A stretch of 64,000 nucleotides of DNA, taken from IMG/VR virus record IMGVR_UViG_3300029922_000013, positions 1 through 64,000 of that record. One strand, written 5' to 3'. The notes under the pieces were generated by a model. That model saw only the letters and a list, made by a program, of their open reading frames with translations. It was not told the origin of the DNA and searched no databases. A program made the position numbers and the translations under genes. Numbering within the stretch: the first letter of the stretch is position 1; each line of letters opens with the position of its first letter. The DNA comes from a virus. Shown in pieces: positions 7,581-48,816 of this stretch.

Positions 7581-7657
7581 CCGCCGTGGTCGGGGCTGGT
7601 CGCTCCAAAGGCTCTTATAAGGCTTTGACCTAGGTTCAATTCCTAGGCGGCGGACCA
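7581..7657 (+). tRNA. tRNA-Ile(UAU)-like, atypical D-arm, encoded CCA
   Basis: Acceptor CCGCCGT/GCGGCGG, anticodon arm AGGCT-CTTATAA-GGCTT, T arm CTAGG-TTCAATT-CCTAG, ACCA end. Confidence 0.8.
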
Positions 7658-25510: not shown

Positions 25511-26539
25511 TTAGAGATCTAAAAGAGGAAGGGGCTTGGGATAAACAGAGCATTCATTGGAAAGCCATGCTTTGGAGAGCTTAATACAGTAATCCTTATT
25601 TCTTGTCCAGTCTTCTTCTTTGATGTGAAGAACCTGAATTCCCTGATAAAGAAATGAATAAGAGTCTTTTATTTCATGATAATTTCTGATATCTTCATCC
25701 GACCAAAGCTTTTTTCTTTTATTTTTTCTCATACATTTAAAAGAATGGTGATAGGTACCATCAAATTCCACAGCTTTTTTCATTTTTTGATTGACAATAT
25801 CTAGCTCGAAACGTTTTATATGAGGTTTTGTAGGAATTTCTATTTTATAAAATTTAATCTTCTTCGAATCTGGCAGAACTTTTCTTATTTCACTTAGTAG
25901 TTCTAATTCCATAAGAGAACTTCCCTTAGATTTTTTCATATGCTGACAAATATCGTCTAGAATTTTCTTTCTATTAGCCGAACAGTAAGCCCCATTACTT
26001 TTTTTATAGAATTCTCCTCTGGTTCCATATTTACTAGCTTCTTTTTTTAAATCCTCGTGGGTCCAGTCCTCTCTTATTAGTCTTGTCATATGACTACATA
26101 TAAGATCTAGAATTTTTCTATTTTGTGCGGTTTGATAAGCATTATCATTTAATTTAGCAAAATCAATTCTAGTGCTATATTTTTGGGCTTCATGCGCTAG
26201 CTCTTGATTTGTCCATGAATAATGGAATTGTTTCATATGAGAACAAATTTGATCTATGTAATCTTTTCTACAGGCAGCTAAATACGCGCCCATCGCGTGA
26301 TTTTTAAAGTCGTTTTTTGAGGAATATTTACTAGCTTCTTTTTTAAGTTCTTCTAAAGTCCATTTCAATTTCGGAGATACTTTCCCAATAGATGCATTTT
26401 TTGGCATGTGAGAACAAACTTTATCAAGAGCTTTGATTTTTATAGCCGCCCTGTAAGCATTAAGGTACAATCTCTTAAATTCATATCTAGTTTTACATTT
26501 CAATGCTAGTTCTTGTATTTTTTCTAAATCCCATGTCAT
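25511..26539 (-). CDS. Homing endonuclease: 4 tandem ~44-aa repeats plus Vsr/DUF559-like nuclease
   Basis: W..E.L..EA.KY..R..F......AY..A.....LD.IC.HM x4; ELDI...VEFDGTYHH. Confidence 0.8.
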   Translation of the reverse strand: MTWDLEKIQELALKCKTRYEFKRLYLNAYRAAIKIKALDKVCSHMPKNASIGKVSPKLKWTLEELKKEASKYSSKNDFKNHAMGAYLAACRKDYIDQICSHMKQFHYSWTNQELAHEAQKYSTRIDFAKLNDNAYQTAQNRKILDLICSHMTRLIREDWTHEDLKKEASKYGTRGEFYKKSNGAYCSANRKKILDDICQHMKKSKGSSLMELELLSEIRKVLPDSKKIKFYKIEIPTKPHIKRFELDIVNQKMKKAVEFDGTYHHSFKCMRKNKRKKLWSDEDIRNYHEIKDSYSFLYQGIQVLHIKEEDWTRNKDYCIKLSKAWLSNECSVYPKPLPLLDL

Positions 26540-26577
26540 ATTAATAAAGATTATCATCACTAGGGACAAAAGTCAAT

Positions 26578-27185: not shown

Positions 27186-29531
27186 TTATGCCGATTGCTG
27201 TACTGCAGAAATCGCGAAAGTGATTGGGACGAAGTAGATCGCTGTGGCCAGTTTAATCTCCACACTTACCGTCATGGTAGGAGCTGCAATAGAGATTTTA
27301 GCGTTCTTGAACCCGAGTGGAGCGTCACTGCTTGCAGCAATCAACTTCAATTGGAAATAGGTTCCCATTTTTTGCGTCAAGAAAGCTGACGCAGAAGCAG
27401 CTGAAACGTCCGCCAGTGATTGACCGACGAATGCATTAGCAAAACTGAACTTCAGATCGATAGCGATAATATCCGCGTCGTAAACAGCTTGTATGCTGTT
27501 GTACACGAAATTGTTGTCGATTCCGTAAGTTGTTTGATCTGACACCCAACGAACTCCTCCAACATCAGTAAAGAGTGGAAGCAAACCGGATTCCAGAGCT
27601 TGACTGGTATCGCCTGGATCGCCATTGTTATAACCCGTAGGATCAACAATACTAATCACATTGGCATACTTATTGACAATAGCTTTATAGAATCCGCCAG
27701 CTTGCATGCCTGCCGCGACTACTGCAGCGTACCAAGGTTGGAACTGAGTTACGACACCAAATGAATTGACTTGTGTAACGGATTGGAATGCGACAGAACA
27801 ACGGAAACTTGCCAATGATTGGGCCTGAGTTTCTGCATTGACAAAAAGTCCATTGTAAGATAGAATACAAATGCGATTTTTTCCGAGGCTTGGTTCGCTA
27901 TATTCGAGACAATGACTCTTGAGGAGTGCATTTGTTGCTGCAATAGTGTAAGTCGAATCCGGAGAAGTCTGATCTGCGATGATGTCTGCGCTGGCATCTT
28001 GAGAAATCAATGGCACGATAATGTTGCAATTGATGGAACCCAAGGAGTTGATAGCGTTTGCAACGTCGGCAGCCAGAGTGGCTCCACGAGTTCCACCTGC
28101 TAAGTAAGCAGGAGAAGCCATAGGAGTTGGAAGTCCGGAAGTCGCCGTAGCAGTAAAGGACATCAATCGGCTGGTCGCCATTGCTTGAGTGAATTCGTAC
28201 AAACCCATTTTGATACGGCCTGGCTCTTCACTTGCACCCGTAGAAGCGATACCGATTGCAGAAACTGCATCCAGAGCACTCGTAGGGAGCTGAGTAGCAG
28301 GAGAAGCAACGGTTGCACTATACCCAGGTTGAGAAGAGATGAAGGAGGCGAGTTGTCCTATAGTGGTGTAATCACTCAAAGTGATACTCAGATTACCGCC
28401 TGAACCGCCAGTGACCGTGGTTGTCAATACGCCGGCTGTTATAGTGAGAGTTCCAGTAGCTCCTTGATAACCTACGCTTAGAGCAACATCAGCGCTAGCT
28501 TGAAGCGTTTCGTTAACACCAGTCGTAGCATTTGAGTCCTGAATTTCAATTTCAGGTTCTTGGGAAGAAATGTACAAATTTGGTGTAAATCCAAGGGCTG
28601 CAAGATCACCAGGAGTCGAATCGATAAGTTCGAACGATTTACCCCATCCGTTACCCCATGCAGCGGAATCTGGATTCACTGCGAGTGTCAAAGTATTCGT
28701 AGCCATTCCCATGGATGCAGTCATCGCTTCCGGAAGCAATCTGGTGAATGTCGAGAAAGTAATGGTCGTGTCTCCAGTTCCACTGACTTTGGTCAAAGTT
28801 CCGGCAGGTAGAGGAGCCCCAGTCCCAGTAGCGAACAAAGTTGTTCCGGCGACAATAGTTGCCAAAACAGTGAAGGTTTGGGTATTATTACTATAAATTG
28901 CTCCTACAGTAGCATTAGCTGCCGTAATAGTAAAGTCATAGCGATTAAGTTCGGTAACCAAATGGCCGATAGTATCGTGATCGGCAGATGTAGCTGAAAG
29001 TGTTACGGTTGTCGCAGCGGCACCATTTATACGAATGCTGAAAGAATCGCCGTTGAGAGCCGAACCAAACGCTGGAATGGTGGTTCCCGTGACAGAAGGA
29101 GCTACTTCTGCAGCTGCGGACAATATCTGATAACGATCTTGATTGCCGAGAACACCCCAGTTTAAATCGAACAAGTCTCCATAAGAAGGAGCCAAACTAG
29201 CAGTTGCCATTGTTCCGGTATTCGTTTTTACAACGTAGACCTGAGTAGCAGTTCCGGTAATGTTAGCATCGTTGGAAGGAGATGCGATGGCCATAAAAGC
29301 ATCTACGATTTGACCACTCGTAAAGTTTTGCATTACCTTACTAATTTGGTCAGGTGTGTACAAACTTTGTGCAAGAGAAACTTGCTCGTAGCTTGGTCCA
29401 CCATCAGCTTCACCCAAAAGTACTACGATACCAGATGAAGCGACACCAACGGGCTGGCTAACAACGTTATAATTAACGTAAGCGCCAGGGATAACCGTAT
29501 TTACGAAAGTCGTATTTAGTCTTTGAGCCAT
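27186..29531 (-). CDS. Contractile tail sheath protein
   Basis: IPGAYV...LLGEADGGP N-terminus; C-terminal VSDQTTY...NSI and YFVPITF. Confidence 0.85.
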   Translation of the reverse strand: MAQRLNTTFVNTVIPGAYVNYNVVSQPVGVASSGIVVLLGEADGGPSYEQVSLAQSLYTPDQISKVMQNFTSGQIVDAFMAIASPSNDANITGTATQVYVVKTNTGTMATASLAPSYGDLFDLNWGVLGNQDRYQILSAAAEVAPSVTGTTIPAFGSALNGDSFSIRINGAAATTVTLSATSADHDTIGHLVTELNRYDFTITAANATVGAIYSNNTQTFTVLATIVAGTTLFATGTGAPLPAGTLTKVSGTGDTTITFSTFTRLLPEAMTASMGMATNTLTLAVNPDSAAWGNGWGKSFELIDSTPGDLAALGFTPNLYISSQEPEIEIQDSNATTGVNETLQASADVALSVGYQGATGTLTITAGVLTTTVTGGSGGNLSITLSDYTTIGQLASFISSQPGYSATVASPATQLPTSALDAVSAIGIASTGASEEPGRIKMGLYEFTQAMATSRLMSFTATATSGLPTPMASPAYLAGGTRGATLAADVANAINSLGSINCNIIVPLISQDASADIIADQTSPDSTYTIAATNALLKSHCLEYSEPSLGKNRICILSYNGLFVNAETQAQSLASFRCSVAFQSVTQVNSFGVVTQFQPWYAAVVAAGMQAGGFYKAIVNKYANVISIVDPTGYNNGDPGDTSQALESGLLPLFTDVGGVRWVSDQTTYGIDNNFVYNSIQAVYDADIIAIDLKFSFANAFVGQSLADVSAASASAFLTQKMGTYFQLKLIAASSDAPLGFKNAKISIAAPTMTVSVEIKLATAIYFVPITFAISAVQQSA

Positions 29532-29532
29532 T

Positions 29533-29835
29533 TTATTTCTCCCTATTTAAACTTTTAACGCCAAAATTCTTGAGCCCAGCTTCGAAATTTTCAGGGCTAT
29601 CGTTTTTTGTACTGACCAAGTGCAGCCACAAGATTTGTTCCATTTTTCCTGTGAGGCCATATTTTTTCTTATTTTCAGTCCAATAAACTTTAAAGGCTTG
29701 TCTTTTTTGCTTTTCTGTGAGCAACTTAGCAATATTAGTAGCCAAAGAAGCACGGTAGGCTTTCGCCTCTTCCATAGTCATATCTTCTTTTGGCTCTGTT
29801 TGTTCTAGTGAACGTTGTTGTTCTTTTTTATACAT
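29533..29835 (-). CDS. Hypothetical protein preceding sheath
   Basis: Operon position. Confidence 0.65.
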   Translation of the reverse strand: MYKKEQQRSLEQTEPKEDMTMEEAKAYRASLATNIAKLLTEKQKRQAFKVYWTENKKKYGLTGKMEQILWLHLVSTKNDSPENFEAGLKNFGVKSLNREK

Positions 29836-29838
29836 AAG

Positions 29839-30978
29839 TTATCTCGGAAGCTTCGGTTTAATCTTGGATTGTTGTTCCATGCGAGCTACCGAATGAGCCC
29901 TAGCTGTTCCAACGTCTCCCGTCCTAACTGAAGCACCAGCTCCAGATATCCCTTCTCTAAAAGAAGGATTTGGTTTCGTTCCTACACCTTTTTCGTGTCC
30001 TGTTTCAGCTTTGTCCACGTCAGGTCTACCGTCTTGAGTAGAACGAGGTGCTGGAGCATCACTTGCTTCATGTCCGACAGCTTCAGCAGATTCTCCAGCC
30101 TTTCTCTTGGCGTGTTTTCTTTCCATGAACTTTGCTAACTTAGCAGATAGTATTTGGGTTCCCGGAATAAAAGAAGACTGTTCTCCTTCAGCTTTTTGCT
30201 GTTCAGGTTTAACGCCTTCAGCCACACAAACAGCCTCTGGACTAGTAACTTCTGGTGAATTTTGTTTGACACCTTCCACACAACGTCCAAATTTACTCTT
30301 ACCATCTGACTTAGCCATGGGTTTAGCCATAAGTTTGTGTCCTTCTTTAGCTTCAGCTTCCTTATTTTGCTTGAAGTGATCTTCTACGTCTTTTTCAACC
30401 TTTTCGCCCAATTTGGCATCAGCATCTTTATCAGGATTTTCAGCTTTGCCCATTTTTTTACCTTTGTGGGCTGCATTCTCAAAAGCTTTTTTCCCGTATT
30501 TTTTCATTCCAGCGGCGGCTGCAACAGCCGCAGGATCAGAAGCCCCACTTTTAGCTGCGCTCGCTTCAACGGCTTTAAAGCCTTCATATTTCTTTTTCAT
30601 CTCAGACTTGTCTAAGGCTGCTTTTTCTTTAGCTAACTCGCCTTTGACTTTGTCCTTAAATTCGTACGGAGGTTCCATACCATCAGGTTTGTTATTACCT
30701 TCGGCAGCTTCTTTAGGATTTCCAGAAGGAGAAATTTGCTTAGCTACTCTCGGACCGGCTGAGTCTTTTGATTTTCCAGGTTTAACTTCGTATTCACTGT
30801 AATCGCGCTCAGTGGCTTTTTGGTTGGTTTCGATTGAACCATACTTAACGCCAGGTTTGGGTGAATTCTCAGTTTCGTATTTTTTTAAAGTTTCCGATTT
30901 ATTAAGGATTTCCTGCGCCTTGGCCAGCACCATTTGGGCGACCGTTCTAGCTGAAATTGGTTTGTTGTCGTTTGCCAT
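29839..30978 (-). CDS. Low-complexity probable internal head protein
   Basis: Several K[SA]E motifs (LNKSE, LDKSE, MGKAE, VDKAE); late motif upstream. Confidence 0.6.
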   Translation of the reverse strand: MANDNKPISARTVAQMVLAKAQEILNKSETLKKYETENSPKPGVKYGSIETNQKATERDYSEYEVKPGKSKDSAGPRVAKQISPSGNPKEAAEGNNKPDGMEPPYEFKDKVKGELAKEKAALDKSEMKKKYEGFKAVEASAAKSGASDPAAVAAAAGMKKYGKKAFENAAHKGKKMGKAENPDKDADAKLGEKVEKDVEDHFKQNKEAEAKEGHKLMAKPMAKSDGKSKFGRCVEGVKQNSPEVTSPEAVCVAEGVKPEQQKAEGEQSSFIPGTQILSAKLAKFMERKHAKRKAGESAEAVGHEASDAPAPRSTQDGRPDVDKAETGHEKGVGTKPNPSFREGISGAGASVRTGDVGTARAHSVARMEQQSKIKPKLPR

Positions 30979-31074
30979 AGTTAAACCCCTGTTATCTATC
31001 CTTAAAGATTAGTTTAGGTACTAATTCTACTATACAACTTACTGATTTTATTAACTTTTATTCTTTTAATGTTA

Positions 31075-32133
31075 TCAATCTTCATATTCATACTCTCCCT
31101 CGCAATCGGGAGTATTTGGAACCGCAGGTTCTGTCACATCTACCCCTGCATACCAGTCCTGGTCATTTTCTTGTAATGGTGGAGTATTTAAGTTAGATAT
31201 TATACGAAGACCACCAATATAACCTTTTGGATTTTCTTCTGTAACGGCTGCTGGATCTTGATCCCGTAGAAGGACTGATTCAATATTTCTGTGAAGGCCG
31301 CGAATGAATTGCTGCTGCACTTTTCCAAACATGGTGATTTGACGACAAAATATTTCTTCGCCCCCAGCGTTAGAAAAATCCGGATTAAATATGTCAGTGC
31401 TAGTTATATGAGTTTCTGCAAAACCATTATGTTCGTAGAATTCTCTATAACGCAATAATCCAAACACCACAATAGAATGAAGCCACAAAAGAGTTTGAGG
31501 ATCGTTAGTCGCTAAAGTAATATTCCAGTTTTCCTCAAACCAAGATCTCCCGAGTCTAGAAGTAAAAAATCTATACTGAGGAATTACTCCTAGTTGTGTA
31601 GAGTCTAATTCAATGCCGGGTTGTATTTGAATTTCCCCGTCAGGAGTTATTCCTTCAATAACAACTCCAGCTCCATTCGACGGATTAACTAAAACCATTC
31701 CAGGAGAAACGGGAGCTATGTCGGTCCCAACAGGAACACCTACTAAACCAGTGGAAGCATCGAAACTGATAGGAGAAAAAGGTTTAACTACGTATGGAAT
31801 AGGTTGCCCCACCCTATTGGGCATAAGGATCAAGTCTTCCTCACTTATATCACTCATGGTTCGTAAATCTTGAACCTCGTTACTACTTCCAAGTGTTAGG
31901 AATATAGCAGGAAATTTTTCTTTATCCTTAGAAAATTGTAACTGCACATTAACATTATTATTAGAGAACCATTCCTTGGCCGCTAGTATTTGTTTTTGTC
32001 CAAATTGAGATTTCAAAAAAGGATTTTGAGTAAAATCATCTAGAATGTAATCTAAAAGCCATAGGTTGGTTTTTATATCCCCTAATGTTTTTTCTAGAAT
32101 TGTTTTAAGAAGTGCGTCTGTTTGAAATATCAT
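31075..32133 (-). CDS. Putative tail completion/terminator protein
   Basis: FPAIFLTLGSSNE motif, position upstream of sheath. Confidence 0.55.
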   Translation of the reverse strand: MIFQTDALLKTILEKTLGDIKTNLWLLDYILDDFTQNPFLKSQFGQKQILAAKEWFSNNNVNVQLQFSKDKEKFPAIFLTLGSSNEVQDLRTMSDISEEDLILMPNRVGQPIPYVVKPFSPISFDASTGLVGVPVGTDIAPVSPGMVLVNPSNGAGVVIEGITPDGEIQIQPGIELDSTQLGVIPQYRFFTSRLGRSWFEENWNITLATNDPQTLLWLHSIVVFGLLRYREFYEHNGFAETHITSTDIFNPDFSNAGGEEIFCRQITMFGKVQQQFIRGLHRNIESVLLRDQDPAAVTEENPKGYIGGLRIISNLNTPPLQENDQDWYAGVDVTEPAVPNTPDCEGEYEYED

Positions 32134-32136
32134 ATA

Positions 32137-33006
32137 CTAATCCTTCCACTTAGAAATAATGTCAGGAATAATTCTAGTGTAGAATTCATTTTCTGCCCAC
32201 ATCATAGCTTCTTCCATAAATTTGTTAGCTTTGTAACCAGGATGTATAAACTTGTCCTTTGGGGCTACTCCTGTTTCAGGATTCACAATGGGACTTTCCG
32301 AAGCAGTTCTAAACGTCATGAATGAGCGTGTTACTTTTACTTTACCTTTTTTATTAAGCTTAGCGTTACCTGCAGAGTCTTTATCTATCGCTTGATAAAT
32401 TCTCATTCTTTCTAGTGGATCACTTGACCATTTGTGACTGGATTTACCACCCTTGAAATCAAATTCGTGCAGCAGCCCTTCTTTAGGATTACCGTTTTTA
32501 TCTCTTTCAACTCCGGCCCACGGCACCGTTTCTAAGCCATTAGCTTTTCTACGTTTATTCATTGCTTTGAGTTCAAATCTAACGCGATCTGTTAGGCCTT
32601 TTTCATAGCCAGTTTGAAGGCTCGGTTTCTTAGAGTGTTCAAAGGGAATTACTAGATAACGACCATTTTTGCCGTGTTTTGTGCTTTTAGAAGAAAACAA
32701 CCAAGCATCTGTTTTCATATCAGTATTAGGGGGTATACCTTCTTCAATCCAATAGGCAGATCCAGACAAAGTGACGACGCTAGTGTTGGAATCTAGATGA
32801 TCCACTCTAAGATTTTGCTCATTATCTTTTCCACGGAATACTAATTGCAAACTAGGACTTAATTTTTTTTGAGCAAGTTCTATTATATGTTGTTTAGTAG
32901 CATTAGCCAAATCTCTAACGCTTTTAGAAAGTTCTTTTTTAACTTTTTCTTGTTCGCTTTTGCAAACTTCAAGAACATCTTTAGGATCAAGTTTGAGCTT
33001 AAGCAT
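32137..33006 (-). CDS. Putative neck protein
   Basis: AYWIEEG...DMK, RYLVIPF, FMTFRT and FIHPG motifs typical of large-myovirus neck proteins. Confidence 0.65.
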   Translation of the reverse strand: MLKLKLDPKDVLEVCKSEQEKVKKELSKSVRDLANATKQHIIELAQKKLSPSLQLVFRGKDNEQNLRVDHLDSNTSVVTLSGSAYWIEEGIPPNTDMKTDAWLFSSKSTKHGKNGRYLVIPFEHSKKPSLQTGYEKGLTDRVRFELKAMNKRRKANGLETVPWAGVERDKNGNPKEGLLHEFDFKGGKSSHKWSSDPLERMRIYQAIDKDSAGNAKLNKKGKVKVTRSFMTFRTASESPIVNPETGVAPKDKFIHPGYKANKFMEEAMMWAENEFYTRIIPDIISKWKD

Positions 33007-33008
33007 AT

Positions 33009-33356
33009 TTAGCCTTTTACAGGCACTCCGCCAGGCCCCATAACGCGACCTTCTTTCATATCAATGAATCTAACCTTACCGTTAGGGTCGGTTATTTTTT
33101 TCTGACCTTTTGCGTTTACCCCACCTTCTGGTATAGGATCTTTAGCAATATGGGGAGTGCTCGCTGTAGTAGGTAGCTTTTTTATTGATCCGGCGCCAGT
33201 AGCTGAATTAGCTACCGGCTTTGAACTGTGGGGATTGAGCAGCACTCTCCGGGGCCGCTTCTTTTTCATGGGGATGCCCGCAATTAGGGCAAGCTTCATC
33301 ACTAGGCATTTCCTCAGAACCCGGTTGTTCTTCTGGATTTTCGCTTTGGCCTTCAA
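33009..33356 (-). CDS. Small ORF with uncertain start (possible frameshifted extension of 33208..34887)
   Basis: Fills the 200-bp gap to the next gene but has no start codon outside the overlap. Confidence 0.4.
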   Translation of the reverse strand: MKAKAKIQKNNRVLRKCLVMKLALIAGIPMKKKRPRRVLLNPHSSKPVANSATGAGSIKKLPTTASTPHIAKDPIPEGGVNAKGQKKITDPNGKVRFIDMKEGRVMGPGGVPVKG

Positions 33357-34887
33357 TCTCGTTAACTTCTTGTTCAGTCTCTCCAGAATTATCTAATCCA
33401 GCCAATGAACAAAGTTCTATCATAGCTCTTAACATACTTATACACGCATCGTATAGTTCAGGTGCTTGATCTTTAGCTTTATCCAGGATCGCTTTCTGAG
33501 ACTTAAATCCTTCCAAAGCGTGACCAACCAATTGAGTCACCTTTTCTCGTTGAATATTGTCGGCATGTTGATCCAAACCACCTTGTAAAACTTCTGAAAG
33601 GTCCGGGTCAGATCCATTTGCATCTTCCTCACTTAAACCTAAGTCACCCTGTTTTTGATTATAGTCAGCTGGACGACTTGTACCATCTGGGTCCATATCT
33701 TGCAACATCTCTTGTTGATTATCTAAGTTAGCATCGAGTAAATCTGTTGTAGTTTTAGGCTGTCCGTCATCTATAATATCTTCAAAATCTTTAGAATTGT
33801 CAAGATTTTGATCCAGCAAATCTTCAGCAGAATCCCCATGTTGATCACAAGTGCAACTTGGACAATGCTGAGCTTCACCCATAGATTCTTGCTCGTAGTT
33901 TTCGGCTTCATCTGAAGTAGAATTTTCTATAGGAATGTCAGCCTGTGGTTGTAGTTGTTCAGTATCATTATATTTCAGATCGCTTGGCTTATCGCCTTGA
34001 GGTTGAGCCATACTTTGAGGAGCAGATCCTTCGGCTTGTCCACGATAATCTTTTGGAGCAGGTTTCTTGTCCATAGGTTCTCCATCTTTAGGGTCTGGCA
34101 TTTCTTCGTTCATTTTACGATCTGATTCCTGAACATCAGTTGAGACCGCTTCGAATGTTCTAGGTTGTGCGATGAGGTTTGGTTTTTTAATAGTAGGGGG
34201 AGTAGAGTCATTTGCTTGATAAGAATTGTCTCTCTGCTTTAAATCACTATTTTTGTAACCGGAATCGTAGCCGTGGTTGTTGTCTTGTTTAGGTGGCTCA
34301 GATTCGGTAGGCTCATTTTCATTAGAGTCCGAACCTTCAGGTAAGACTTGGCCCTGAGTATTCGGGCTGTCTGGAGCTTGATTTGCCAATCCTTCTTTTA
34401 CGGATTCAGGTTCGCCAGTGTCTTCTCCGCCACCTACAACGTCTGCGATTTTCTTTCTTTCTTCTTCATGAGGATCAGAAGCGTTCCCTACAGCATCGCT
34501 AATTTCTTGTTCAACAGAATCATCGTATTGTACAATTTGATCTTTCCCACGGGACTTGGCTGCCAACAGAGCCTTACCAGCTTGTGAAATAGTTTGCCCA
34601 TAACCAATGGACAGAGTCGCTTGAACCATATCGGCATAGTTTTGTCGAAGCTGTTCTAATAAATTTACGAAATCAGATGGTGCAACAAAGCTCCCCTCAT
34701 CTCCACCACCGCTTATCCATCGTCCACCATTAGCTTCCACGAATTCTTTAATCTGATTATTTCCAGCCGTAATAAGCTGAGAAACTTGAGATACTTGATC
34801 CAGATCATCAGAAAGAATGGCTCTAGCATGACGTTTGCCAATTCCATCGCCATCGAATGCAAATACTACTTGATTCTGATTATCCAT
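33208..34887 (-). CDS. mCpol (minimal CRISPR polymerase / Cas10 palm-like cyclase) domain fused to long acidic region
   Basis: FDGDGIG, ISGGGDEG, TLSIGYG and ALLAAKSRGKDQI within the first ~122 aa. Confidence 0.8.
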   Translation of the reverse strand: MDNQNQVVFAFDGDGIGKRHARAILSDDLDQVSQVSQLITAGNNQIKEFVEANGGRWISGGGDEGSFVAPSDFVNLLEQLRQNYADMVQATLSIGYGQTISQAGKALLAAKSRGKDQIVQYDDSVEQEISDAVGNASDPHEEERKKIADVVGGGEDTGEPESVKEGLANQAPDSPNTQGQVLPEGSDSNENEPTESEPPKQDNNHGYDSGYKNSDLKQRDNSYQANDSTPPTIKKPNLIAQPRTFEAVSTDVQESDRKMNEEMPDPKDGEPMDKKPAPKDYRGQAEGSAPQSMAQPQGDKPSDLKYNDTEQLQPQADIPIENSTSDEAENYEQESMGEAQHCPSCTCDQHGDSAEDLLDQNLDNSKDFEDIIDDGQPKTTTDLLDANLDNQQEMLQDMDPDGTSRPADYNQKQGDLGLSEEDANGSDPDLSEVLQGGLDQHADNIQREKVTQLVGHALEGFKSQKAILDKAKDQAPELYDACISMLRAMIELCSLAGLDNSGETEQEVNEIEGQSENPEEQPGSEEMPSDEACPNCGHPHEKEAAPESAAQSPQFKAGS

Positions 34888-35818
34888 TTTTATTACTCCT
34901 CAGAACTTCAAGCAACATTTCAATATTTTCAGAGTTCCATGATTTAGGAAAACTAACTTTAATACCGTCTTCAGTTTTCTTTAGAAAAACTTTCTTACCC
35001 ATATCTTGACCAAAACACATACAAGCACTTACGCCAGAATCATTAAAAATAACGCCATTGCAATCGGGACAATTGATCTGCTCACTTTTTACCATTTCAA
35101 TAGAAAATTCTTTTTTTGCAAGCTTCTTTTTTCTATTTTCTACGAACTCTGCCAACTGGAGAGATTTTTTTGTAGGCTCTAAAACGATTACGGTAGGCTT
35201 TGGAGCCTCTTTAGGTTTTGCCATTTCTTTGTGCTCTTCAGTTATTTTTTTATGTTCAGCAGACAATTGATTCAATTTAGCTAAAAATAATTGTTGAACA
35301 GCGTCTCTTTGCATGAGCTTGCCGTCTATAACTTTGTTGACTAAACTATGCAAATTCATACGTTCATCAATGATACGATTAATTTCTGCTTCTTTAGTAT
35401 GATCAACTTCTGTTTCTTTATCCAGATCTTCTACGTCATAAAGTTCTAGAATTGAAAGCAGCACAAGCCCCAAGCCTGGGATAGAACGGTGCAAGAAATC
35501 TGAAATTTTAACATTGTTTTGAAGTACTTGACCTGAAAAGCTATCGCGCTCATGCTTGGTCGTAGAAACGATGGTATCTTCTTTGCCGGGAATTCTAATT
35601 TCTTTAGTATCCCCAATTTGCATGGGAGACAATTCACGAATCAAAAGACTCAACAAAGCCTTAGGTACAATTTGAAGCCCTTGATATAGATCATTCGTAT
35701 CAGTGACAGTCCGAGTTCCTTGCTTGTAAATTTCGCTTTTAGACAAGTCATTCCCTAAGGATTCTAGAAAATCCTCGCCAAGCGTTTTAATAAGGAAGTA
35801 CTCGGCATTCTTTTTCAT
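34880..35818 (-). CDS. Probable head-associated protein with C-terminal Zn ribbon
   Basis: LSKSE and MVKSE tags; CPDC...CMC. Confidence 0.6.
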   Translation of the reverse strand: MKKNAEYFLIKTLGEDFLESLGNDLSKSEIYKQGTRTVTDTNDLYQGLQIVPKALLSLLIRELSPMQIGDTKEIRIPGKEDTIVSTTKHERDSFSGQVLQNNVKISDFLHRSIPGLGLVLLSILELYDVEDLDKETEVDHTKEAEINRIIDERMNLHSLVNKVIDGKLMQRDAVQQLFLAKLNQLSAEHKKITEEHKEMAKPKEAPKPTVIVLEPTKKSLQLAEFVENRKKKLAKKEFSIEMVKSEQINCPDCNGVIFNDSGVSACMCFGQDMGKKVFLKKTEDGIKVSFPKSWNSENIEMLLEVLRSNKNG

Positions 35819-35821
35819 ATA

Positions 35822-36289
35822 TTAAGGGATCATGCTGCTGGTCATGGCGACAGCAACAGGTTGAATACTTGAGTTATCGTTAATCAAATAAACTAGTAAA
35901 CTAGAAGAACTAGAAATTACCCAATTAGAGTAGCCCCCTGCAAAGTAGGACCAGGAATTTGGCATACAAGGAAGACCCACTCTGCCAGAAGAATCGGTAG
36001 CGCCTGCAGCTAGCGCAGTCACGGTGCCGTCGGTACCAAAGGTGATAGCAGCGACGGTTCCAGAGTTGTTGTAGACAGCCAGGTTGCGTCCAGCATTAGG
36101 AAGAGGATAGGCAGACGAAGGATTGGTGGTATACCCGTTACCTACGCCTGGAACAGGAAGAGGAAGCAAATGACGGCCAACCTCAGCAGTTTTGTTAGCA
36201 CCCGCCGCATTGTTGTAAGTATTATTGGCTATGGCCCCAGTGTCTTGGGTGTCAAATCCTTGAATATTACGTTTTTTAATCTCAGCCAT
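35822..36289 (-). CDS. Putative virion structural protein
   Basis: Beta-rich; late motif at 36328. Confidence 0.55.
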   Translation of the reverse strand: MAEIKKRNIQGFDTQDTGAIANNTYNNAAGANKTAEVGRHLLPLPVPGVGNGYTTNPSSAYPLPNAGRNLAVYNNSGTVAAITFGTDGTVTALAAGATDSSGRVGLPCMPNSWSYFAGGYSNWVISSSSSLLVYLINDNSSIQPVAVAMTSSMIP

Positions 36290-36343
36290 GTTATTGTTTT
36301 CCTTATCTTTTTATCTAATCCTATAGGTAAAGATTACTCGTTA

Positions 36344-37366
36344 TTAGGTATCGTTTTCGACATCCAACATTTCTACGCGGATAACCGGTTGATTTATATT
36401 GACTTTGTCCATTGGTTCAGCCGTTTGCCTGATTTCCATATTCGGTTGGGGTGGTTTGTTGAGTTCATTACCCCGATTTATATTATGGTACAGGAACTCT
36501 CTAGTTACCTGGACAAACTCGGGCATCCGTTCCGATGACCTAACTCCATTTTGGGTAACATCAGTGATACGAACTTCTCTTAAAATTGAAGTTATGTAGT
36601 AAAAAGCCCTATAAAGGTATCTTACACTATACGTTCTTCCCTCACCCGTATCTGGATCAATACCAGGATTATTGCCCCCGTCAATCCAAGCGATATTTCC
36701 GTGATCCGAAATTTTATAGTCAATACCTTGAGTATAATAAACCCCTCTGGAGTCTATCAAAGGAGCGGCCATTTTTTTGATAGGAAACATCGGCACATTT
36801 TCTGAATTAAAAGAAAATTGAAGCAACTCTTTATTAACAACCAAGTCATCTGCTTGGGGATCACCGTGATACAGTCTATCACCAGGAGCTAGGTAAATCC
36901 TGTTGTTCGCAGCTATAGGAGCTGGTTCGCAACAGTCTTCTTCAGATGTGCCACTCTGCTCAGATAAACCACCTGGTATCGAAGGAGCTTGGTCATAAAA
37001 TCTAGGCAAAACAAGGTTTCCCGTGGAAGAGTCATGCAATCCACCTTCAGAAGGTCTTAGTTGATCTTTTTGATTGCTTGTCAATACAGCAGTGAATTTA
37101 CCTGCCAAAGTGTAAATATATCCGTTAGAAGTAATGACATCAACATCACCATTATTTCTGCGATAATCCCCTTTTTCATTCAATCCGATAGGGCTAATAT
37201 TTGCAACGTAATGCAAAAAAGTAGTTCCCAAACTTTGGACGAACATATCCAGTCTATTCAAGTCAAACGATTCTTGAATATAAGGTATAAACGGTGCAAT
37301 TACCGATATCTGTTCGCCGACAGGCTTTTTATTTGCCACATTTATCTTTCTTACAAAGTTCTGCAA
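36344..37366 (-). CDS. Putative neck/head-completion protein
   Basis: LAPGDRL, YTQGIDY, GNIAW and YSVRY motifs; position. Confidence 0.6.
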   Translation of the reverse strand: MQNFVRKINVANKKPVGEQISVIAPFIPYIQESFDLNRLDMFVQSLGTTFLHYVANISPIGLNEKGDYRRNNGDVDVITSNGYIYTLAGKFTAVLTSNQKDQLRPSEGGLHDSSTGNLVLPRFYDQAPSIPGGLSEQSGTSEEDCCEPAPIAANNRIYLAPGDRLYHGDPQADDLVVNKELLQFSFNSENVPMFPIKKMAAPLIDSRGVYYTQGIDYKISDHGNIAWIDGGNNPGIDPDTGEGRTYSVRYLYRAFYYITSILREVRITDVTQNGVRSSERMPEFVQVTREFLYHNINRGNELNKPPQPNMEIRQTAEPMDKVNINQPVIRVEMLDVENDT

Positions 37367-37523
37367 GTTCTTTCAGGCCATCATCCGTATTCTTATGAAA
37401 CAGCGCCAGTCCTTTAATTATATCATCAACGAGCGTCTCTTTAGCTAACTCTTTGTTCTTCTTAAATAATTTAGAGTCAATGACATTGTTTTTTGGTTGA
37501 TCGCCAGAAGATTGGTTACTCAT
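37329..37523 (-). CDS. Hypothetical protein
   Basis: Operon-packed, AAGGTG RBS. Confidence 0.55.
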   Translation of the reverse strand: MSNQSSGDQPKNNVIDSKLFKKNKELAKETLVDDIIKGLALFHKNTDDGLKELAELCKKDKCGK

Positions 37524-37524
37524 G

Positions 37525-38010
37525 TCATTTCACCTTTATTGCTTTAGAATTGCATGACAAAGCTTTTTCGGTAGTAGCTCCAGCCATTGCCCTAACAAAT
37601 TCCTTGGGAAAATTGATTTCCGGAATAAACAAAGAGTCTTCTCTCAAAATGCCGTTAACAGAAGCCAACTTGACATTATGCTTAGTAATCTGAAACTCAA
37701 CGTCTGCACCAGTCTGAATGCTATAGATATCGTGACCTGATTTACGAAGATCATCGGACAAAAAATGAGAGTGCTTGTCTACTAAGGCTTCTGTGTTGAA
37801 ATTTTCTGATTTACAAAGAACGGCCTGGAAGGCAGGAAACATTTTAGAAATAGTGTGTTTTACGATAGCAGGATGTGATCCTCCTGAAACAACTTTTCCA
37901 TTGACAATTCCCATCCAGAATCCACCTTTTGTGCGCACCAATTTCACGGGCTGACCATTTAGCATTCCAGCTTCTTCTACATTGTCGATATCTTCTGGTC
38001 GTAAATTCAT
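37525..38010 (-). CDS. Probable head-associated protein
   Basis: LCKSE tag; operon position. Confidence 0.55.
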   Translation of the reverse strand: MNLRPEDIDNVEEAGMLNGQPVKLVRTKGGFWMGIVNGKVVSGGSHPAIVKHTISKMFPAFQAVLCKSENFNTEALVDKHSHFLSDDLRKSGHDIYSIQTGADVEFQITKHNVKLASVNGILREDSLFIPEINFPKEFVRAMAGATTEKALSCNSKAIKVK

Positions 38011-38011
38011 A

Positions 38012-38965
38012 CTATTTTCCTCTTTTCAATTCAGGATTATCTTCTATATATCGTCTAAGATCGTCCCCATTAAGCAACGTAATTTTTTCACTCTTATTTA
38101 TTTCTTCGGCTTCTTTTTGAGCTTCCTTGCGATACTCCTCAAGAGCATCATGAATTTCTTGTAATACCGTAGGATGGGTGTCTCCAATCAGAGCGGCATG
38201 CTCGACAGCTTCATGCCTATATTCTTCAGCGTCAGTTTTCCATTTCCAGTCGCCAGTTTCTTTCAATTTTTCGTAGCAAGCAGCTGCGCGTGAAGCCCAA
38301 GTCCAAGCAGTGTCTTCTTGAATTTCAGCTAGAGTTTTTTCTGTTATATCTTTGGAGCCTTTTTTCAGATCTAGTTTAGAAGGCTTTTCTATATTAGGGG
38401 AGTAGGTTTCTAGAGTTTTAGGACCTTTTCGCAATTCTGCATTACTAAACTCAATACCTGCATCCTCGGCGGTCTTTGCTCCGGAAGCCTTTATTTTATC
38501 ATGAGTAGCCTTATCCACGCTAACATGAGCATTCCACTCATAATTTTCTTTGTGACCCAAATGATCAAACTTTTCGTGGTGCTCTTTCATTTTATCTGCA
38601 TATGCACCCTGCAAACTAATAGCATATACATCATTGCCATTACGATCTGTTAACATCTTAGGTTCTATCTTAGTTTGCTTTGGATCTGGTGGATTCATCT
38701 CAAGTGCTGAGGCAGTTTTATGGGCGTCTTCAGGCTTATCATTTTTTTTATCAAAAAACTTAATAGTAGCGTGGTAGTCAATACCATTATCTGGTCTCTT
38801 ATCTTTCCCATTTATTTTTACGGGATAGGCAAGTATAAAACCAGTTGAAGCGAGCTTGGCATATGCAGCTGGATCTTCAGCTTTTCTCAATGATTGAGAC
38901 TTGTCCATGTGAGCAATATCAGAGAGAGAATCGGAAAACATTCTTTTCCAAAGTTTATTTTTCAT
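38012..38965 (-). CDS. 2H phosphoesterase domain protein (Acb1/LigT-like)
   Basis: Two Hx[T/S] motifs, YHATI and AHVSV, ~80 aa apart; flanked by LRKAE and INKSE. Confidence 0.65.
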   Translation of the reverse strand: MKNKLWKRMFSDSLSDIAHMDKSQSLRKAEDPAAYAKLASTGFILAYPVKINGKDKRPDNGIDYHATIKFFDKKNDKPEDAHKTASALEMNPPDPKQTKIEPKMLTDRNGNDVYAISLQGAYADKMKEHHEKFDHLGHKENYEWNAHVSVDKATHDKIKASGAKTAEDAGIEFSNAELRKGPKTLETYSPNIEKPSKLDLKKGSKDITEKTLAEIQEDTAWTWASRAAACYEKLKETGDWKWKTDAEEYRHEAVEHAALIGDTHPTVLQEIHDALEEYRKEAQKEAEEINKSEKITLLNGDDLRRYIEDNPELKRGK

Positions 38966-39680
38966 TGTGCCAATCCCCACTAGTAACATGTTCCGGCATC
39001 AGGCCAGCTTTTTGATCAGCGAAAACAGTCTGGGAAGGATTTTTTCTGTTATTCTCACCATGAGGTCCAAAGTTCACCCAGTTGTTTTGGCCAGCTGTTT
39101 CGGTGAATAAAGCTCGTTGAGCTGCGGGACTGTACATCTTTTTGTGTGTTAGATAGGCTTGATGTTCGCCAGTAGGACCAAAACCAGTTTTGCCGCCTTT
39201 GTGGTGTCCGTTAATATCGTGAACTATTCTGAATACATCATTTGCTAAAAGTTTTTGGCCACCGTGGTTGAACTCAGTTGGAGCCAGCATAGGATGATCA
39301 TTTGTTTGGTCTTTGCTGCCAAAGCCTTGGTCCGTAGGAAAATACCAAAGATGCTTATTGTTTTCCACATCGTGATGCATTTCTTTAGAATTTTTATAAG
39401 GATTTGCTTGTCCAGGCTTAATTCTTGATATCTTAAGACCTGAACCTAAGATGTCTTTGAACTGTTTCCCCGTTTCATGGGTCAAAGCACCATACGCAGA
39501 TTTTACATCTGGATGAGTTGGATCGTGCTTCATGCCCTCATAAGCATTTGCTATCGCTTTCCCATGCTCAGGATTTATTTTTACTTTTGGAGCTTCCGAC
39601 GATGACGTGGTGGTTGGCTCAGCTTTTTGAACTGAGTTATTTTCGCATAAAACTGCTAAAATACCACGATCCATTCCCAT
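38955..39680 (-). CDS. HDxxGH metal-binding domain protein (zincin-like)
   Basis: NDVFRIVHDINGH...GFGPTGE..AY..H..MYS...LFTETAGQN.WVNFG. Confidence 0.6.
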   Translation of the reverse strand: MGMDRGILAVLCENNSVQKAEPTTTSSSEAPKVKINPEHGKAIANAYEGMKHDPTHPDVKSAYGALTHETGKQFKDILGSGLKISRIKPGQANPYKNSKEMHHDVENNKHLWYFPTDQGFGSKDQTNDHPMLAPTEFNHGGQKLLANDVFRIVHDINGHHKGGKTGFGPTGEHQAYLTHKKMYSPAAQRALFTETAGQNNWVNFGPHGENNRKNPSQTVFADQKAGLMPEHVTSGDWHNEK

Positions 39681-39683
39681 ATG

Positions 39684-40538
39684 TTAATATTCACCAATCA
39701 CATATCTTCTAGCAAAGATACCTTTTATTCTTTGAATTAATTCGTCTCTATTTCTAGTAAGTTCTTCAATACGAAGTGCGAATCTACGAGGACCAAGAGA
39801 GCTGGAACTTTGGGAAATACCGTCTTGGGTTTGAGATTGAGATGTAGCAAAATATAGGACAGCTATTTGGGATAGCAAGTTGATGGCAGCGTTAGTTCCT
39901 ATTAATTGATTCACAATGATTGGCACCTGTCCTTCTCTATTAGATAAACCGGACGAGTAGGTCAGCTGCCAATAGGCGGGCACTTGCCCACAGTTGCCTT
40001 GGGCACCCCAGATAGCCAAAAATGCGATCCCGGCCCCTTGATTTGTAGCCGTGATTTGGGTTCCGCTCGCACTAGTAGCGCCAAAGGCTGCGAGCAAAGG
40101 CACCACATTGACTTGACCTATGCTAAAATTTGCCGTTGTTATCCACATACTCGGAACAGTAAAGATAACCTCGTCATTAGATGCAACGATAGAAAGATCT
40201 TCAACACTTATGATTGGGCCGTGGCGGGGCTTTAGATGTATAAAAGCCTTGTATAATGAGTAATCAAAAACTAACTGTTCTTTGAATTCTTCTCTTGTTA
40301 TAGTCGTATTTAACTGAGCCTCAGTTTCATTCATGGCCATCATGATACGATCTTTTAGCTCATCATCAGTAAATCTATCGCCATTAGGAAATACTAGCGG
40401 GATACCTTTTAGGTATCTGCTCCTAAATAACTCTGGCGTAAGGAATGGTTCAACACGAGCGAGCAACCCACTCGTTTGGGAGGCATGCACCGGGTACATG
40501 CTTGTCTGAAAAGTGCGGGACCTTGAGAAATCAGCCAT
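39684..40538 (-). CDS. Putative head-tail adaptor protein
   Basis: PIISV..L, VPAYW.LTY.SG, SQSQTQDGISQS. Confidence 0.65.
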   Translation of the reverse strand: MADFSRSRTFQTSMYPVHASQTSGLLARVEPFLTPELFRSRYLKGIPLVFPNGDRFTDDELKDRIMMAMNETEAQLNTTITREEFKEQLVFDYSLYKAFIHLKPRHGPIISVEDLSIVASNDEVIFTVPSMWITTANFSIGQVNVVPLLAAFGATSASGTQITATNQGAGIAFLAIWGAQGNCGQVPAYWQLTYSSGLSNREGQVPIIVNQLIGTNAAINLLSQIAVLYFATSQSQTQDGISQSSSSLGPRRFALRIEELTRNRDELIQRIKGIFARRYVIGEY

Positions 40539-41502
40539 TTTTTTGCTCCAAAAATTCTAGGCATCTTTTGATGCAGTCTTGTTTGTCTTTTGACCATTCC
40601 TCTTCTTTAATATGAAGAATCTTAATTCCTTTAGATAAGAAGTGCGCGTCTTTAATTTGATGGTAATTTACCAGATCTTCTTTTGGCCAATCTTTGCGAG
40701 AACGACTCAAGCCTTTTACGCTATGCCAGTACTTCCCATCCATTTCTATTCCTAAATTACTTTTGTCAATAAAGATGTCAATGTCAAACCCTTTGATGTG
40801 CGGCTTTCCTTCAATTTTAACATTTACATCCCTTATTTTCCTAGCAGTTGGAATTGTAGATGTAATTGCGTCAAAAAGTTCTTGCTCACACCTAGATACG
40901 CCACCTGAACGCTTCATGTGCCCACACATTTTTGGCAAAATATTTTTTCTTTTACCGGCTCTATAAGCACTCGGACTGCTATTTTTAAATTCACTTCTCG
41001 TGTTATATTTTAAAGCTTCTGCGTAAAGATCGGCATCTGTCCAGTCTGTTCTAATGAGTCTGATCATATGTCCACAAATAAGATCCATCATATTTCTTTT
41101 TAATGCGAGGTCATAGGCTTTACGGCTGTAGTTTTCAAAATCTTTTCTGGTACCGTATTTCAAAGCTTCTTGATGCAATTGTAGATTTGTCCATTCTCTG
41201 CGTTTAAGATCCATGTGATTACAAATAACGTCTAACATCTCTCTTTTTAAAGCAATTTGATAAGCATTAAAACTATTTTTTTGAAACTCTCCTCTGGAAG
41301 TATATTTTTTAGCTTCATTTTTAAGAGCATCGAGAGGCCAAGAATAATGTTTAATTATCATATGGGTGCATATACTATCTAAAATGCCCATATTACGTGC
41401 GGCCTGATAAGCTCCTGAGCTGTGCTCGAAGAATTCGGTCCTGGTGCTATATTTTTTAGCCTCAGTATTTAAATTTTTGAATGACCATTTTTTAGTCTTC
41501 AT
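40531..41502 (-). CDS. Homing endonuclease, 4 tandem repeats plus Vsr/DUF559-like nuclease
   Basis: Paralogue of 25511; DIDIFI...GIEMDGKYWH. Confidence 0.8.
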   Translation of the reverse strand: MKTKKWSFKNLNTEAKKYSTRTEFFEHSSGAYQAARNMGILDSICTHMIIKHYSWPLDALKNEAKKYTSRGEFQKNSFNAYQIALKREMLDVICNHMDLKRREWTNLQLHQEALKYGTRKDFENYSRKAYDLALKRNMMDLICGHMIRLIRTDWTDADLYAEALKYNTRSEFKNSSPSAYRAGKRKNILPKMCGHMKRSGGVSRCEQELFDAITSTIPTARKIRDVNVKIEGKPHIKGFDIDIFIDKSNLGIEMDGKYWHSVKGLSRSRKDWPKEDLVNYHQIKDAHFLSKGIKILHIKEEEWSKDKQDCIKRCLEFLEQKNG

Positions 41503-41546
41503 ATTTTTATAATAATCTACATTGTATTAAAAGTCAACCAAATTAC

Positions 41547-41975
41547 TCAAAAGAAAAATGTATTATCAGGCAATCCAGAATCGCTCCCATCATCTGGATA
41601 TTGCACGACTAATGCCTGCTTAACATTAAATGTGGTTACATTGTTTCCTTCAAATAGTTGAAAAACAACGTTCCCCGTCTGTGGCGTTGATGTAAAAGGT
41701 ATTGACACACTGAAAATTGAACCATCGCATGTGGATTGAGCAGCTACGATAGTGAACACAGCGTTACAGTCTATGGAAGGAAAAGTAACGTTCATACCGA
41801 CTGTTACGCCCTCAACGCACCCTCCTGGGATGTACCTGAGCCCGCACTGGTCTAAATCTATCAATTGGTAGTAAAGTGTGCTAGTGTCACTAGCATTAAC
41901 TTGCCATTGATTCGCGTACTTGAAGCTGTTTATGTTTTGATAACCAACAATAGGTCTTGCTGAAAGTCTGGCCAT
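41547..41975 (-). CDS. Putative virion structural protein
   Basis: Beta-rich; late motif at 42033. Confidence 0.55.
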   Translation of the reverse strand: MARLSARPIVGYQNINSFKYANQWQVNASDTSTLYYQLIDLDQCGLRYIPGGCVEGVTVGMNVTFPSIDCNAVFTIVAAQSTCDGSIFSVSIPFTSTPQTGNVVFQLFEGNNVTTFNVKQALVVQYPDDGSDSGLPDNTFFF

Positions 41976-42082
41976 TTTATACACCCCTAAATAGATCTTG
42001 ACAAAGTCTATTATTAAAGATAAACTTCTAGTTAAAGATTGGTCTTAAACTGCTTTTAGGGCCTAAAATAGAGGTTAAATAT

Positions 42083-48775: not shown

Positions 48776-48816
48776 CATGGTTGACAAATAGCAATCTTCA
48801 CTATATGCTATTAAAC

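Follow-up and report, generated by a model that had tools for sequence, protein, structure and literature searches.

An intact mCpol domain on a neck-module carrier protein of Mx1-like phages, with a C-terminal extension predicted to arise by ribosomal frameshifting

Proteins of the mCpol family are best known from Panoptes, a bacterial guard system in which OptS, a stand-alone synthase of ~120 amino acids (aa) with a minimal palm fold, is paired with an S-2TM-beta (OptE) or CARF-TM effector. Panoptes systems (types I and II) belong to bacteria or archaea and often lie beside the cyclic-oligonucleotide-based antiphage signalling system (CBASS); their product, made constitutively, holds the toxic effector in check. 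Structures are available for KpOptS (9mnr, 9pd0) and for an mCpol protein (9nwn) (PMC12657218, PMC12657230, PMC13577387), and in KpOptS Asp6 and Asp57 are catalytic while Ser30 and Asn34 contact the base (PMC12657218). On the phage side, a related concept is that of the polyvalent proteins, which are packaged and injected and in which Iyer, Burroughs, Anand, de Souza and Aravind predicted GGDEF and 2H domains in 2017 (PMC5512222). These authors suggested that the GGDEF heads might disturb host nucleotide responses and that the 2H domains might degrade immune nucleotides; mCpol is not mentioned in that paper. Here we describe an mCpol gene of a phage, found in the first 64 kb of the 150,858-bp virus record IMGVR_UViG_3300029922_000013 (estimated 91% complete); this 64,000-nucleotide stretch is referred to below as the window. 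The phage is an uncultured relative of Myxococcus phage Mx1. The open reading frame list of the window confirms the gene, and its head carries the features that matter most for what follows:

33208-34887, minus strand: mCpol-carrier gene, short zero-frame isoform of 559 aa, with a start that overlaps the stop of the preceding gene at 34880-35818
34525-34863, minus strand: mCpol palm domain, aa 9-121, from Pfam PF18182, PDB sequence match, AlphaFold2 and Foldseek
34846-34854, minus strand: D12-G-D14 metal-binding motif, D12 aligned with the catalytic Asp6 of KpOptS and invariant in 71 homologues
34696-34707, minus strand: G61-G62-D63-E64 hairpin motif, D63 aligned with the catalytic Asp57 of KpOptS

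The first 122 aa contain the four palm-cyclase motifs that an earlier note on this DNA had pointed out, namely DGDGIG (12-17), GGGDE (60-64), SIGYG (93-97) and ALLAAKSRGK (106-115). Pfam mCpol (PF18182) is matched with E 1.1e-17 and 64.9 bits against a cut-off of 26.4, aa 9-121 covering profile positions 2-114 of 114, and the score in a whole-genome search is 68.9 bits; a weaker second match is to the second palm domain of Cas10. The best PDB sequence matches are the Panoptes synthases KpOptS (9mnr, 9pd0) and mCpol 9nwn, at E 2e-6. An AlphaFold2 model built on 71 homologues has a predicted local distance difference test (pLDDT) score above 95 across aa 5-135, and its top-ranking Foldseek matches are six OptS/mCpol chains (9pd0, 9mnr, 9nwn) with template-modelling (TM) scores by target of 0.84-0.87 and root-mean-square deviations of 1.7-2.1 Å, the best being 9pd0 at 0.87 and 1.7 Å. 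Cas10/Csm1 and then GGDEF domains follow, which decides for mCpol the three-way comparison that the note had proposed. Because the Pfam, PDB, AlphaFold2 and Foldseek results agree, the call of a true mCpol domain with its catalytic residues intact is solid. Those residues, on whose conservation the note had staked its proposal, are kept in the homologues: D12, D14, G61, G62 and D63 are invariant in the 71-sequence alignment.

The phage head thus resembles OptS in its minimal palm fold, in its two catalytic aspartates and in S36, which aligns with the base-contact Ser30 of KpOptS. It differs in that the two share only ~25% identity and in that the phage head has a GGDE hairpin of the Cas10/GGDEF type where OptS has only ..AAD. 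It is also fused to a 434-aa carrier, instead of standing alone, and is encoded by a phage among neck genes with no 2TM-beta or CARF-TM effector found. Judged by its sequence, the head appears to be a working mCpol copy, and the phage may make immune-type nucleotides itself. The explanation favoured here, to which we give a probability of about 0.5, is that of a two-part protein, an active mCpol head on a constant virion-module carrier made in two lengths, which would be anchored near the neck and would interfere with host immunity or signalling.

The remainder of the protein had been described as ~430 aa of acidic low-complexity sequence. The acidic part of that description stands (~434 aa, Asp plus Glu 23%, isoelectric point (pI) 4.1); mere low complexity does not, as conserved motifs and a helical domain are present. 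Most of the tail has low AlphaFold2 confidence. Its recognisable elements are:

33403-33597, minus strand: helical carrier domain, aa 431-495 (IQREKV ... QAPELY ...), pLDDT 74-88, kept in Mx1 and in mCpol-less relatives
33838-33867, minus strand: HCPSCTCDQH Cys/His knuckle
33274-33291, minus strand: CPNCGH Cys/His knuckle

Sixteen full-length homologues (44-67% identity) have in common the blocks GYDSGYKNS, KPNL, GQAEG, KPSDLKY, HCPSCTC..H, repeated LDxHxDN, GD(L/M)GLSEED and CPNCGH; they also share the helical block, which reaches to much more distant relatives. Neither the tail nor the helical domain nor the C-terminal extension described next finds anything in Pfam or PHROGs, and a structure search of the ESM Atlas with the carrier half of a fused relative (P0012) gave no usable match.

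Beyond the zero-frame stop (33208), a further frame of ~66 codons occupies the 200 nucleotides (nt) up to the next gene. It is preceded and overlapped by a set of putative recoding signals:

33009-33233, minus strand: C-terminal extension frame, basic, 73 residues, pI 10.2, with its stop 2 nt before the ATG of the next gene; predicted long isoform of 626 aa
33245-33250, minus strand: GGAGAG resembling a Shine-Dalgarno (SD) sequence, 11 nt upstream of the shift site; GGAGG(G) in relatives
33228-33233, minus strand: putative shift site CC CCA C (zero frame TCC CCA CAG), conserved in six loci with a +1/-2 extension
33195-33219, minus strand: 10-bp hairpin that begins 8 nt past the shift site and whose loop contains the zero-frame stop; folding free energy -22.3 kcal/mol, z -2.55

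The extension peptide is kept in every related IMG/VR locus, at 47-78% identity (tblastn, 19 loci; numbered with the more distant loci as L003, L004 and so on). In L003 (P0012) and L014 it forms an in-frame fusion with the mCpol protein, and in L015 (Cys-repeat head) and Mx1 (degenerate mCpol head) with the carrier protein. By a sequence-pattern count over 150 representatives of the family, 44 carry the fused extension, and 26 others end in ..AAPxEG.., the sequence that precedes the shift site of recoded loci. The frame relation varies among the remaining loci. All six +1 (or -2) loci, the window among them, carry xCC CCA CAG, and beyond CC CCA C it is the shifted frame that is conserved as protein (PHSSKP, with differing Ser codons) and not the zero frame; the window hairpin is partly conserved in relatives, with some compensatory changes. 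All six loci with a -1 extension contain X XXY YYZ heptamers (C CCA AAA, A AAA AAG or C CCA AAG) in overlaps of 18-117 nt, nine observed against ~0.35 expected from the density elsewhere in the same genes. In each of the six, the minimum-free-energy fold predicted for the sequence after the slip site contains a hairpin, whose stem begins 2-9 nt into the folded sequence. Recoded loci have an SD-like GGAG(G) 11-16 nt ahead of the shift site, an element absent where the extension is fused in frame. A uniform +1 frameshift was considered and rejected, as relatives use -1 or in-frame fusion.

The same frame could instead be an independent small gene, and the window does offer in-frame ATGs 61 and 91 nt upstream of the zero-frame stop; the varying frame relation among relatives (+1/-2, -1 or the same frame) would also suit such a gene. 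Against this, L008, L013 and L019 lack any ATG, GTG or TTG in the extension frame, and in L004, L011 and L016 start-type codons occur only at or after the zero-frame stop (+6 in L011), mostly within the conserved peptide. No SD sequence was found at any candidate start, and the enriched heptamers in the overlap, the hairpins downstream of the shift sites, the common in-frame fusions and an extension stop that abuts the start of the next gene are all foreign to it, which leaves the independent gene very improbable. Because there is no consistent start, and because of the in-frame fusions, the heptamer enrichment, the hairpins and the conserved shifted frame, the extension is most likely reached by programmed ribosomal frameshifting, and the protein is very probably made in predicted forms of 559 and 626 aa.

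There are well-known precedents for such an arrangement. In tail chaperones of the lambda G/GT type, a frameshift near the 3' end of the gene yields a minor, C-terminally extended isoform, and signals of the dnaX type combine an SD sequence, a slippery heptamer and a hairpin. The carrier gene likewise combines an SD-like element, a putative slippery site and, further downstream, a hairpin; as among G/GT proteins, relatives differ in the direction of the shift and some are fused in frame. It differs from G/GT in lying upstream of the sheath gene and not between tube and tape measure, in its non-canonical site and in carrying an enzyme.

The location among neck and virion genes of a minus-strand structural block, as first noted from the window, is borne out by a fixed synteny with the following genes:

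32137-33006, minus strand: downstream neck gene g32137, HK97 gp10-like or tail-completion-like in an ESM Atlas structure search; always follows the carrier gene
31075-32133, minus strand: next conserved neck gene, g31075, with weak tail-terminator-like matches
27186-29531, minus strand: tail sheath, 42% identical to the annotated Mx1 sheath

Neither of these two neck genes matched anything in PDB profile searches. In 19 IMG/VR loci (tblastn) the order is fixed as g39684, the 2H-like gene, g37525, g36344, g35822, g34880, the mCpol gene, the peptide frame, g32137, g31075, two small genes and the sheath. The core of this order (carrier, g32137, g31075) recurs in Mx1 and in the distant loci L022 and L023, which belong to relatives of 912 and 1297 aa; a sheath match is present in Mx1 and L022, and L023 ends before the sheath position. 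Because the order is fixed in the 19 loci and its core extends to Mx1, L022 and L023, the mCpol gene is a core member of the head-to-tail joining block and no movable accessory gene.

The family is large and comes almost entirely from uncultured phages. A word-indexed search gave 82 homologues, many on contigs of 155-172 kb, and an exhaustive search with aa 1-126 gave 752 representatives of clusters made at 50% identity, of which 515 had E values below 1e-10. Among the best 150 of the 752 nearly all are 300-1300 aa long, mostly with mCpol at the N-terminus, and ~140 keep both acidic motifs (regular expression and inspection); in a small group Asn replaces D12. Since a search for short relatives yielded just four, all apparent fragments of the phage family, the phage clade is remote from stand-alone bacterial mCpol. 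No match to the gene or to the 14-kb region was found among GenBank phages (tblastn, megablast), and Mx1 is the sole cultured relative found, reached via the sheath, the terminase or the long relatives.

What varies across the family is the head. The Mx1 protein (WNM70340.1), encoded in the same slot, still has both the helical domain and the C-terminal peptide. Its head has lost both catalytic aspartates (SID for DGD, LGAVG for GGGDE) and scores 21 bits in Pfam, below the cut-off. One clade (P0073, P0076, P0080, P0081 and locus L015) bears CxYC repeats where mCpol would be, with carrier and slot unchanged. In long relatives ParB_N and GNAT acetyltransferase domains are found between mCpol and the carrier end; P0157, P0195, P0124 and P0184 combine mCpol with ParB_N and/or GNAT. 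As far as sequence comparison can tell, the carrier is thus the constant part of the protein and the N-terminal head the exchangeable part. The Cys-repeat carriers (e.g. L015:6222-7553; P0073, P0076, P0080, P0081) contain four to seven zinc-ribbon-like CxYC...C repeats, and the two Cys/His knuckles of the window protein may be related remnants of them.

This modularity recalls the polyvalent proteins, which likewise place nucleotide-signalling enzymes amid virion genes, and the ParB_N and GNAT domains of relatives belong to the polyvalent vocabulary (PMC5512222). The window protein has a single enzymatic domain, unlike polyvalent proteins with their at least two conflict domains. In place of MuF, portal or zincin it has, as its putative anchor, a new carrier with a C-terminal peptide, and frameshift isoforms lie outside the concept.

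The absence of an adjacent effector, also reported in the earlier note, was upheld: by Pfam and a transmembrane scan the neighbours are without a CARF, SAVED or Cap15-type domain and without a transmembrane segment, none of the latter being found within ~7 kb on either side (27186-41984). With no S-2TM-beta (OptE) or CARF-TM partner found among the neighbours, and with the gene lying on a virus contig in a neck/sheath module, the locus does not qualify as a Panoptes system. The further claim that no effector-less virion-operon mCpol had been described holds for the text of the papers searched and not for their tables. Phage-encoded mCpol is not discussed in the Panoptes papers and reviews searched, but Supplementary Table 3 of PMC12657218 lists Mx1 WNM70340.1 as 'mCpol+?' and a 562-aa protein from a metagenome-assembled genome as 'mCpol+disordered+ZnF+disordered'. 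These entries are members of the same protein family, already catalogued as mCpol-containing; they are rows only, with phage context, function and recoding not discussed, and the Mx1 copy is the one without the catalytic aspartates.

A second nucleotide-related enzyme, a 2H phosphoesterase ~3 kb away in the same minus-strand block, had been proposed from the sequence, and its fold and two H-x-T/S motifs bear this out:

38012-38989, minus strand: divergent 2H phosphoesterase plus helical bundle, with HATI and HVSV motifs; gene callers start it at the ATG at 38965

The start of this gene lies 3.1 kb upstream of the mCpol gene. Its product has no Pfam or PDB sequence match and none to Acb1, and H65-A-T and H147-V-S149 are conserved in 42 homologues. 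Nearly all top Foldseek matches of its model (pLDDT 87) are 2H proteins, namely Usb1, AKAP18, 2'-5' ligase-like proteins, a phage BCSR5 phosphodiesterase, rotavirus VP3, a penguinpox cyclic GMP-AMP (cGAMP) phosphodiesterase and Acb1. VIA-align Z scores are 9.4 for VP3 and cyclic phosphodiesterase (CPDase) over 131-135 residues, 9.2 for LigT over 137 residues, and only 7.2-7.6 for Acb1 (7t26/7t27), below the other 2H families. On the strength of the model, the protein is a divergent 2H phosphoesterase that is not assignable to the Acb1 family. With the 2H enzymes that act on immune nucleotides (Acb1, rotavirus VP3, the poxvirus cGAMP phosphodiesterase) it shares the fold and the two motifs; it is without detectable sequence similarity to Acb1 and is extended by an N-terminal leader and, at the C-terminus, by a helical bundle (SLT in relatives).

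The slot that holds the 2H gene is itself variable. In several homologues an SLT lytic transglycosylase is fused behind the 2H domain, and in Mx1 the same slot (L021:2405-8711) encodes a 1479-aa 'NUDIX hydrolase' and a 619-aa kinase. What the NUDIX protein has in common with the 2H proteins is just the C-terminal part of the profile (positions 240-412, with an SLT-type motif), and not the 2H domain. Because of the 2H-SLT fusions and this shared C-terminal part, the slot appears to offer exchangeable enzyme heads on a scaffold of the particle-borne type. In the window the slot, between g39684 and g37525, holds the 2H phosphoesterase and a protein with a VHDxxGH motif (38955-39680, minus strand; phrog_3170).

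Co-occurrence of the 2H gene with mCpol in relatives, a check that the earlier note had called for, is seen in 14 of the 14 distinct loci with an intact mCpol and a visible slot, the 2H match being weak in L004, L006, L013 and L016. The 2H domain is absent from the whole genome of Mx1 and from the slot of L015, L025 and L026, where g39684 abuts g37525; these four loci are also without an active mCpol. Because the losses amount to about two independent events, the joint loss of mCpol and 2H is suggestive only.

Several other features of the window and its relatives were noted. Motifs of the form ..KAE occur close to the N-terminus of three proteins, namely the 2H protein (LRKAE-D, also kept by its homologues), g38955 (38955-39680) and a scaffold-like protein (46417-47301) upstream of the capsid gene, and three more lie in the Lys/Ala/Glu-rich protein g29839 (29839-30978); such a motif could be a prohead-protease site. 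KAE is not enriched genome-wide (17 observed vs 13.8 expected) and is absent from the mCpol protein. The window also encodes the major head protein (47322-48713), the terminase (50393-52258) and the portal (53294-55141). Four homing-endonuclease-like genes (phrog_20046, phrog_3339, HNH) are scattered among the structural modules (25511-26569, 40531-41502, 48781-50370 and 59701-60720); one separates the capsid gene from the terminase gene, and another the tube gene from later tail genes. Beside the head genes, a 612-aa protein (43228-45066, minus strand) has two chitobiase/Fn3-associated domains and a complete ice-binding-like DUF3494 (E 6e-65). A GroEL/Cpn60-like chaperonin is encoded at 60781-62547 (minus strand; E 6e-32), and a lone tRNA-Ile with anticodon TAT at 7581-7657 (plus strand). 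The tail tube of relatives (L025:16291-16740, L026:10776-11225) matches Pfam Phi812_tail_tube, a possible sign that Mx1-like phages are distantly related in structure to myoviruses of the Herelleviridae type.

How might such a protein work? On the favoured explanation, large myophages of the Mx1 type would carry the mCpol head on a carrier composed of an acidic, mostly disordered linker with short motifs, a helical domain and a basic C-terminal peptide. Ribosomes that change frame at CC CCA C would make the 626-aa long form, and all others the 559-aa short form. By analogy with Panoptes OptS and Cas10, two or more heads may pair and condense nucleoside triphosphates into a cyclic di- or oligonucleotide in the infected cell. 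Through the long form the protein would be held on the particle close to the neck or portal, and the enzyme would either enter with the DNA or be made late. Its product could then interfere with nucleotide-based immunity or signalling of the host, possibly jointly with the nearby 2H phosphodiesterase. Enzyme activity, product, packaging and target are what we infer from domain, locus and recoding signals; particle delivery and an anti-immune purpose are plausible.

Several observations weigh against this explanation. The base-contact Asn34 of KpOptS is not kept, T40 taking its place in the phage head, and since Asn34 is not conserved the substrate of the head is not predictable. Neither a Cap15-type receptor nor SAVED was found in the 151-kb genome, and CARF, sought only among the neighbours, was not found there. 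No recognised packaging domain (MuF, portal) was found by Pfam in the mCpol-carrier protein, and the genome paper of Mx1, the sole cultured relative found, does not report a virion proteome. CC CCA C is not a textbook shift site. The C-terminal peptide was considered as a general cargo tag and rejected, as it occurs once in the genome. Finally, the head is dispensable in two lineages, and the job of the carrier may be purely morphogenetic.

Other accounts of the function are taken here in falling order of probability. The enzyme may be active without being delivered by the particle, the short isoform acting in the cytoplasm late in infection (in lysis timing, a superinfection block or host metabolism) and the position of the gene giving only late expression. 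The short form, which should be the major product, is without the putative anchor, the head starts at residue 5 with no leader where neighbours have N-terminal ..KAE leaders, and the missing packaging domain fits as well. Such an account leaves unexplained why the head is tethered to a conserved carrier with a possible virion-type anchor, and why ParB_N and GNAT, typical of injected polyvalent proteins, sit on the same carrier, and it is unlikely.

A more ambitious version of the favoured explanation couples the two enzymes of the locus. A particle-borne writer (mCpol on its neck- or portal-proximal carrier, with a copy number set by frameshifting) and an eraser (2H, on a second cargo scaffold) would be gained and lost together and, on entry, would replace the host's cyclic-nucleotide alarm pool with a signal of the phage's choosing, which would make it a first counter to inverse-signalling guards such as Panoptes. 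We regard this version as speculative and quite unlikely.

The protein could also be a purely morphogenetic neck protein or assembly chaperone, with the mCpol head as an oligomerisation or nucleotide-binding module that releases no signal. The fixed slot between neck genes speaks for this, as do the short and long frameshift isoforms typical of assembly proteins such as the G/GT tail chaperones and the survival of the carrier where the head is dead (Mx1) or made of Cys repeats (one clade). The catalytic Asp pair and the GGDE hairpin, however, are essentially invariant over very divergent lineages and would be unneeded for mere oligomerisation, and the ParB_N and GNAT domains added to the same carrier look like cargo rather than structure; a structural role alone is decidedly unlikely.

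The earlier note had itself proposed that the phage cyclase supplies a decoy nucleotide to silence Panoptes-type guards (mCpol with a 2TM-beta or CARF-TM effector), while 2H enzymes or sponges erase signals of CBASS or of type III systems. The head does belong to the same enzyme family as OptS, a true 2H phosphoesterase lies 3 kb away and is present in all 14 intact-mCpol loci while absent from Mx1, L015, L025 and L026, and fusions of 2H to an SLT cell-wall hydrolase in relatives suggest delivery by the particle. Yet PMC12657218 describes Panoptes as relatively rare, whereas hundreds of phage lineages have the phage gene as a fixed part of their core; the joint loss reflects about two events, the base-contact residues differ from those of OptS, and the phage 2H enzyme might destroy the phage's own product. 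A core gene as broadly fixed as this (752 clusters) fits a role in basic phage biology at least as well as a counter to Panoptes, and this specific proposal is improbable.

Returning to the two-part protein, work on mCpol has so far dealt only with its role in bacteria as one half of a guard system, in which it makes decoy nucleotides. The sequences gathered here indicate that a widespread phage lineage keeps a catalytically intact mCpol fixed in its particle-building module. The carrier is a modular scaffold whose heads are exchanged (mCpol, Cys repeats, ParB, GNAT), with a putative C-terminal anchor under predicted frameshift control that may be -1, +1/-2 or replaced by in-frame fusion. The result is a phage cargo or assembly protein that bears a nucleotide-signal synthase, from a family whose literature consists of table rows. 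If the enzyme is active, phages would synthesise immune nucleotides, beyond degrading or sponging them, which would be a new move in the nucleotide-signalling arms race, and the family would provide a natural set of cyclases.

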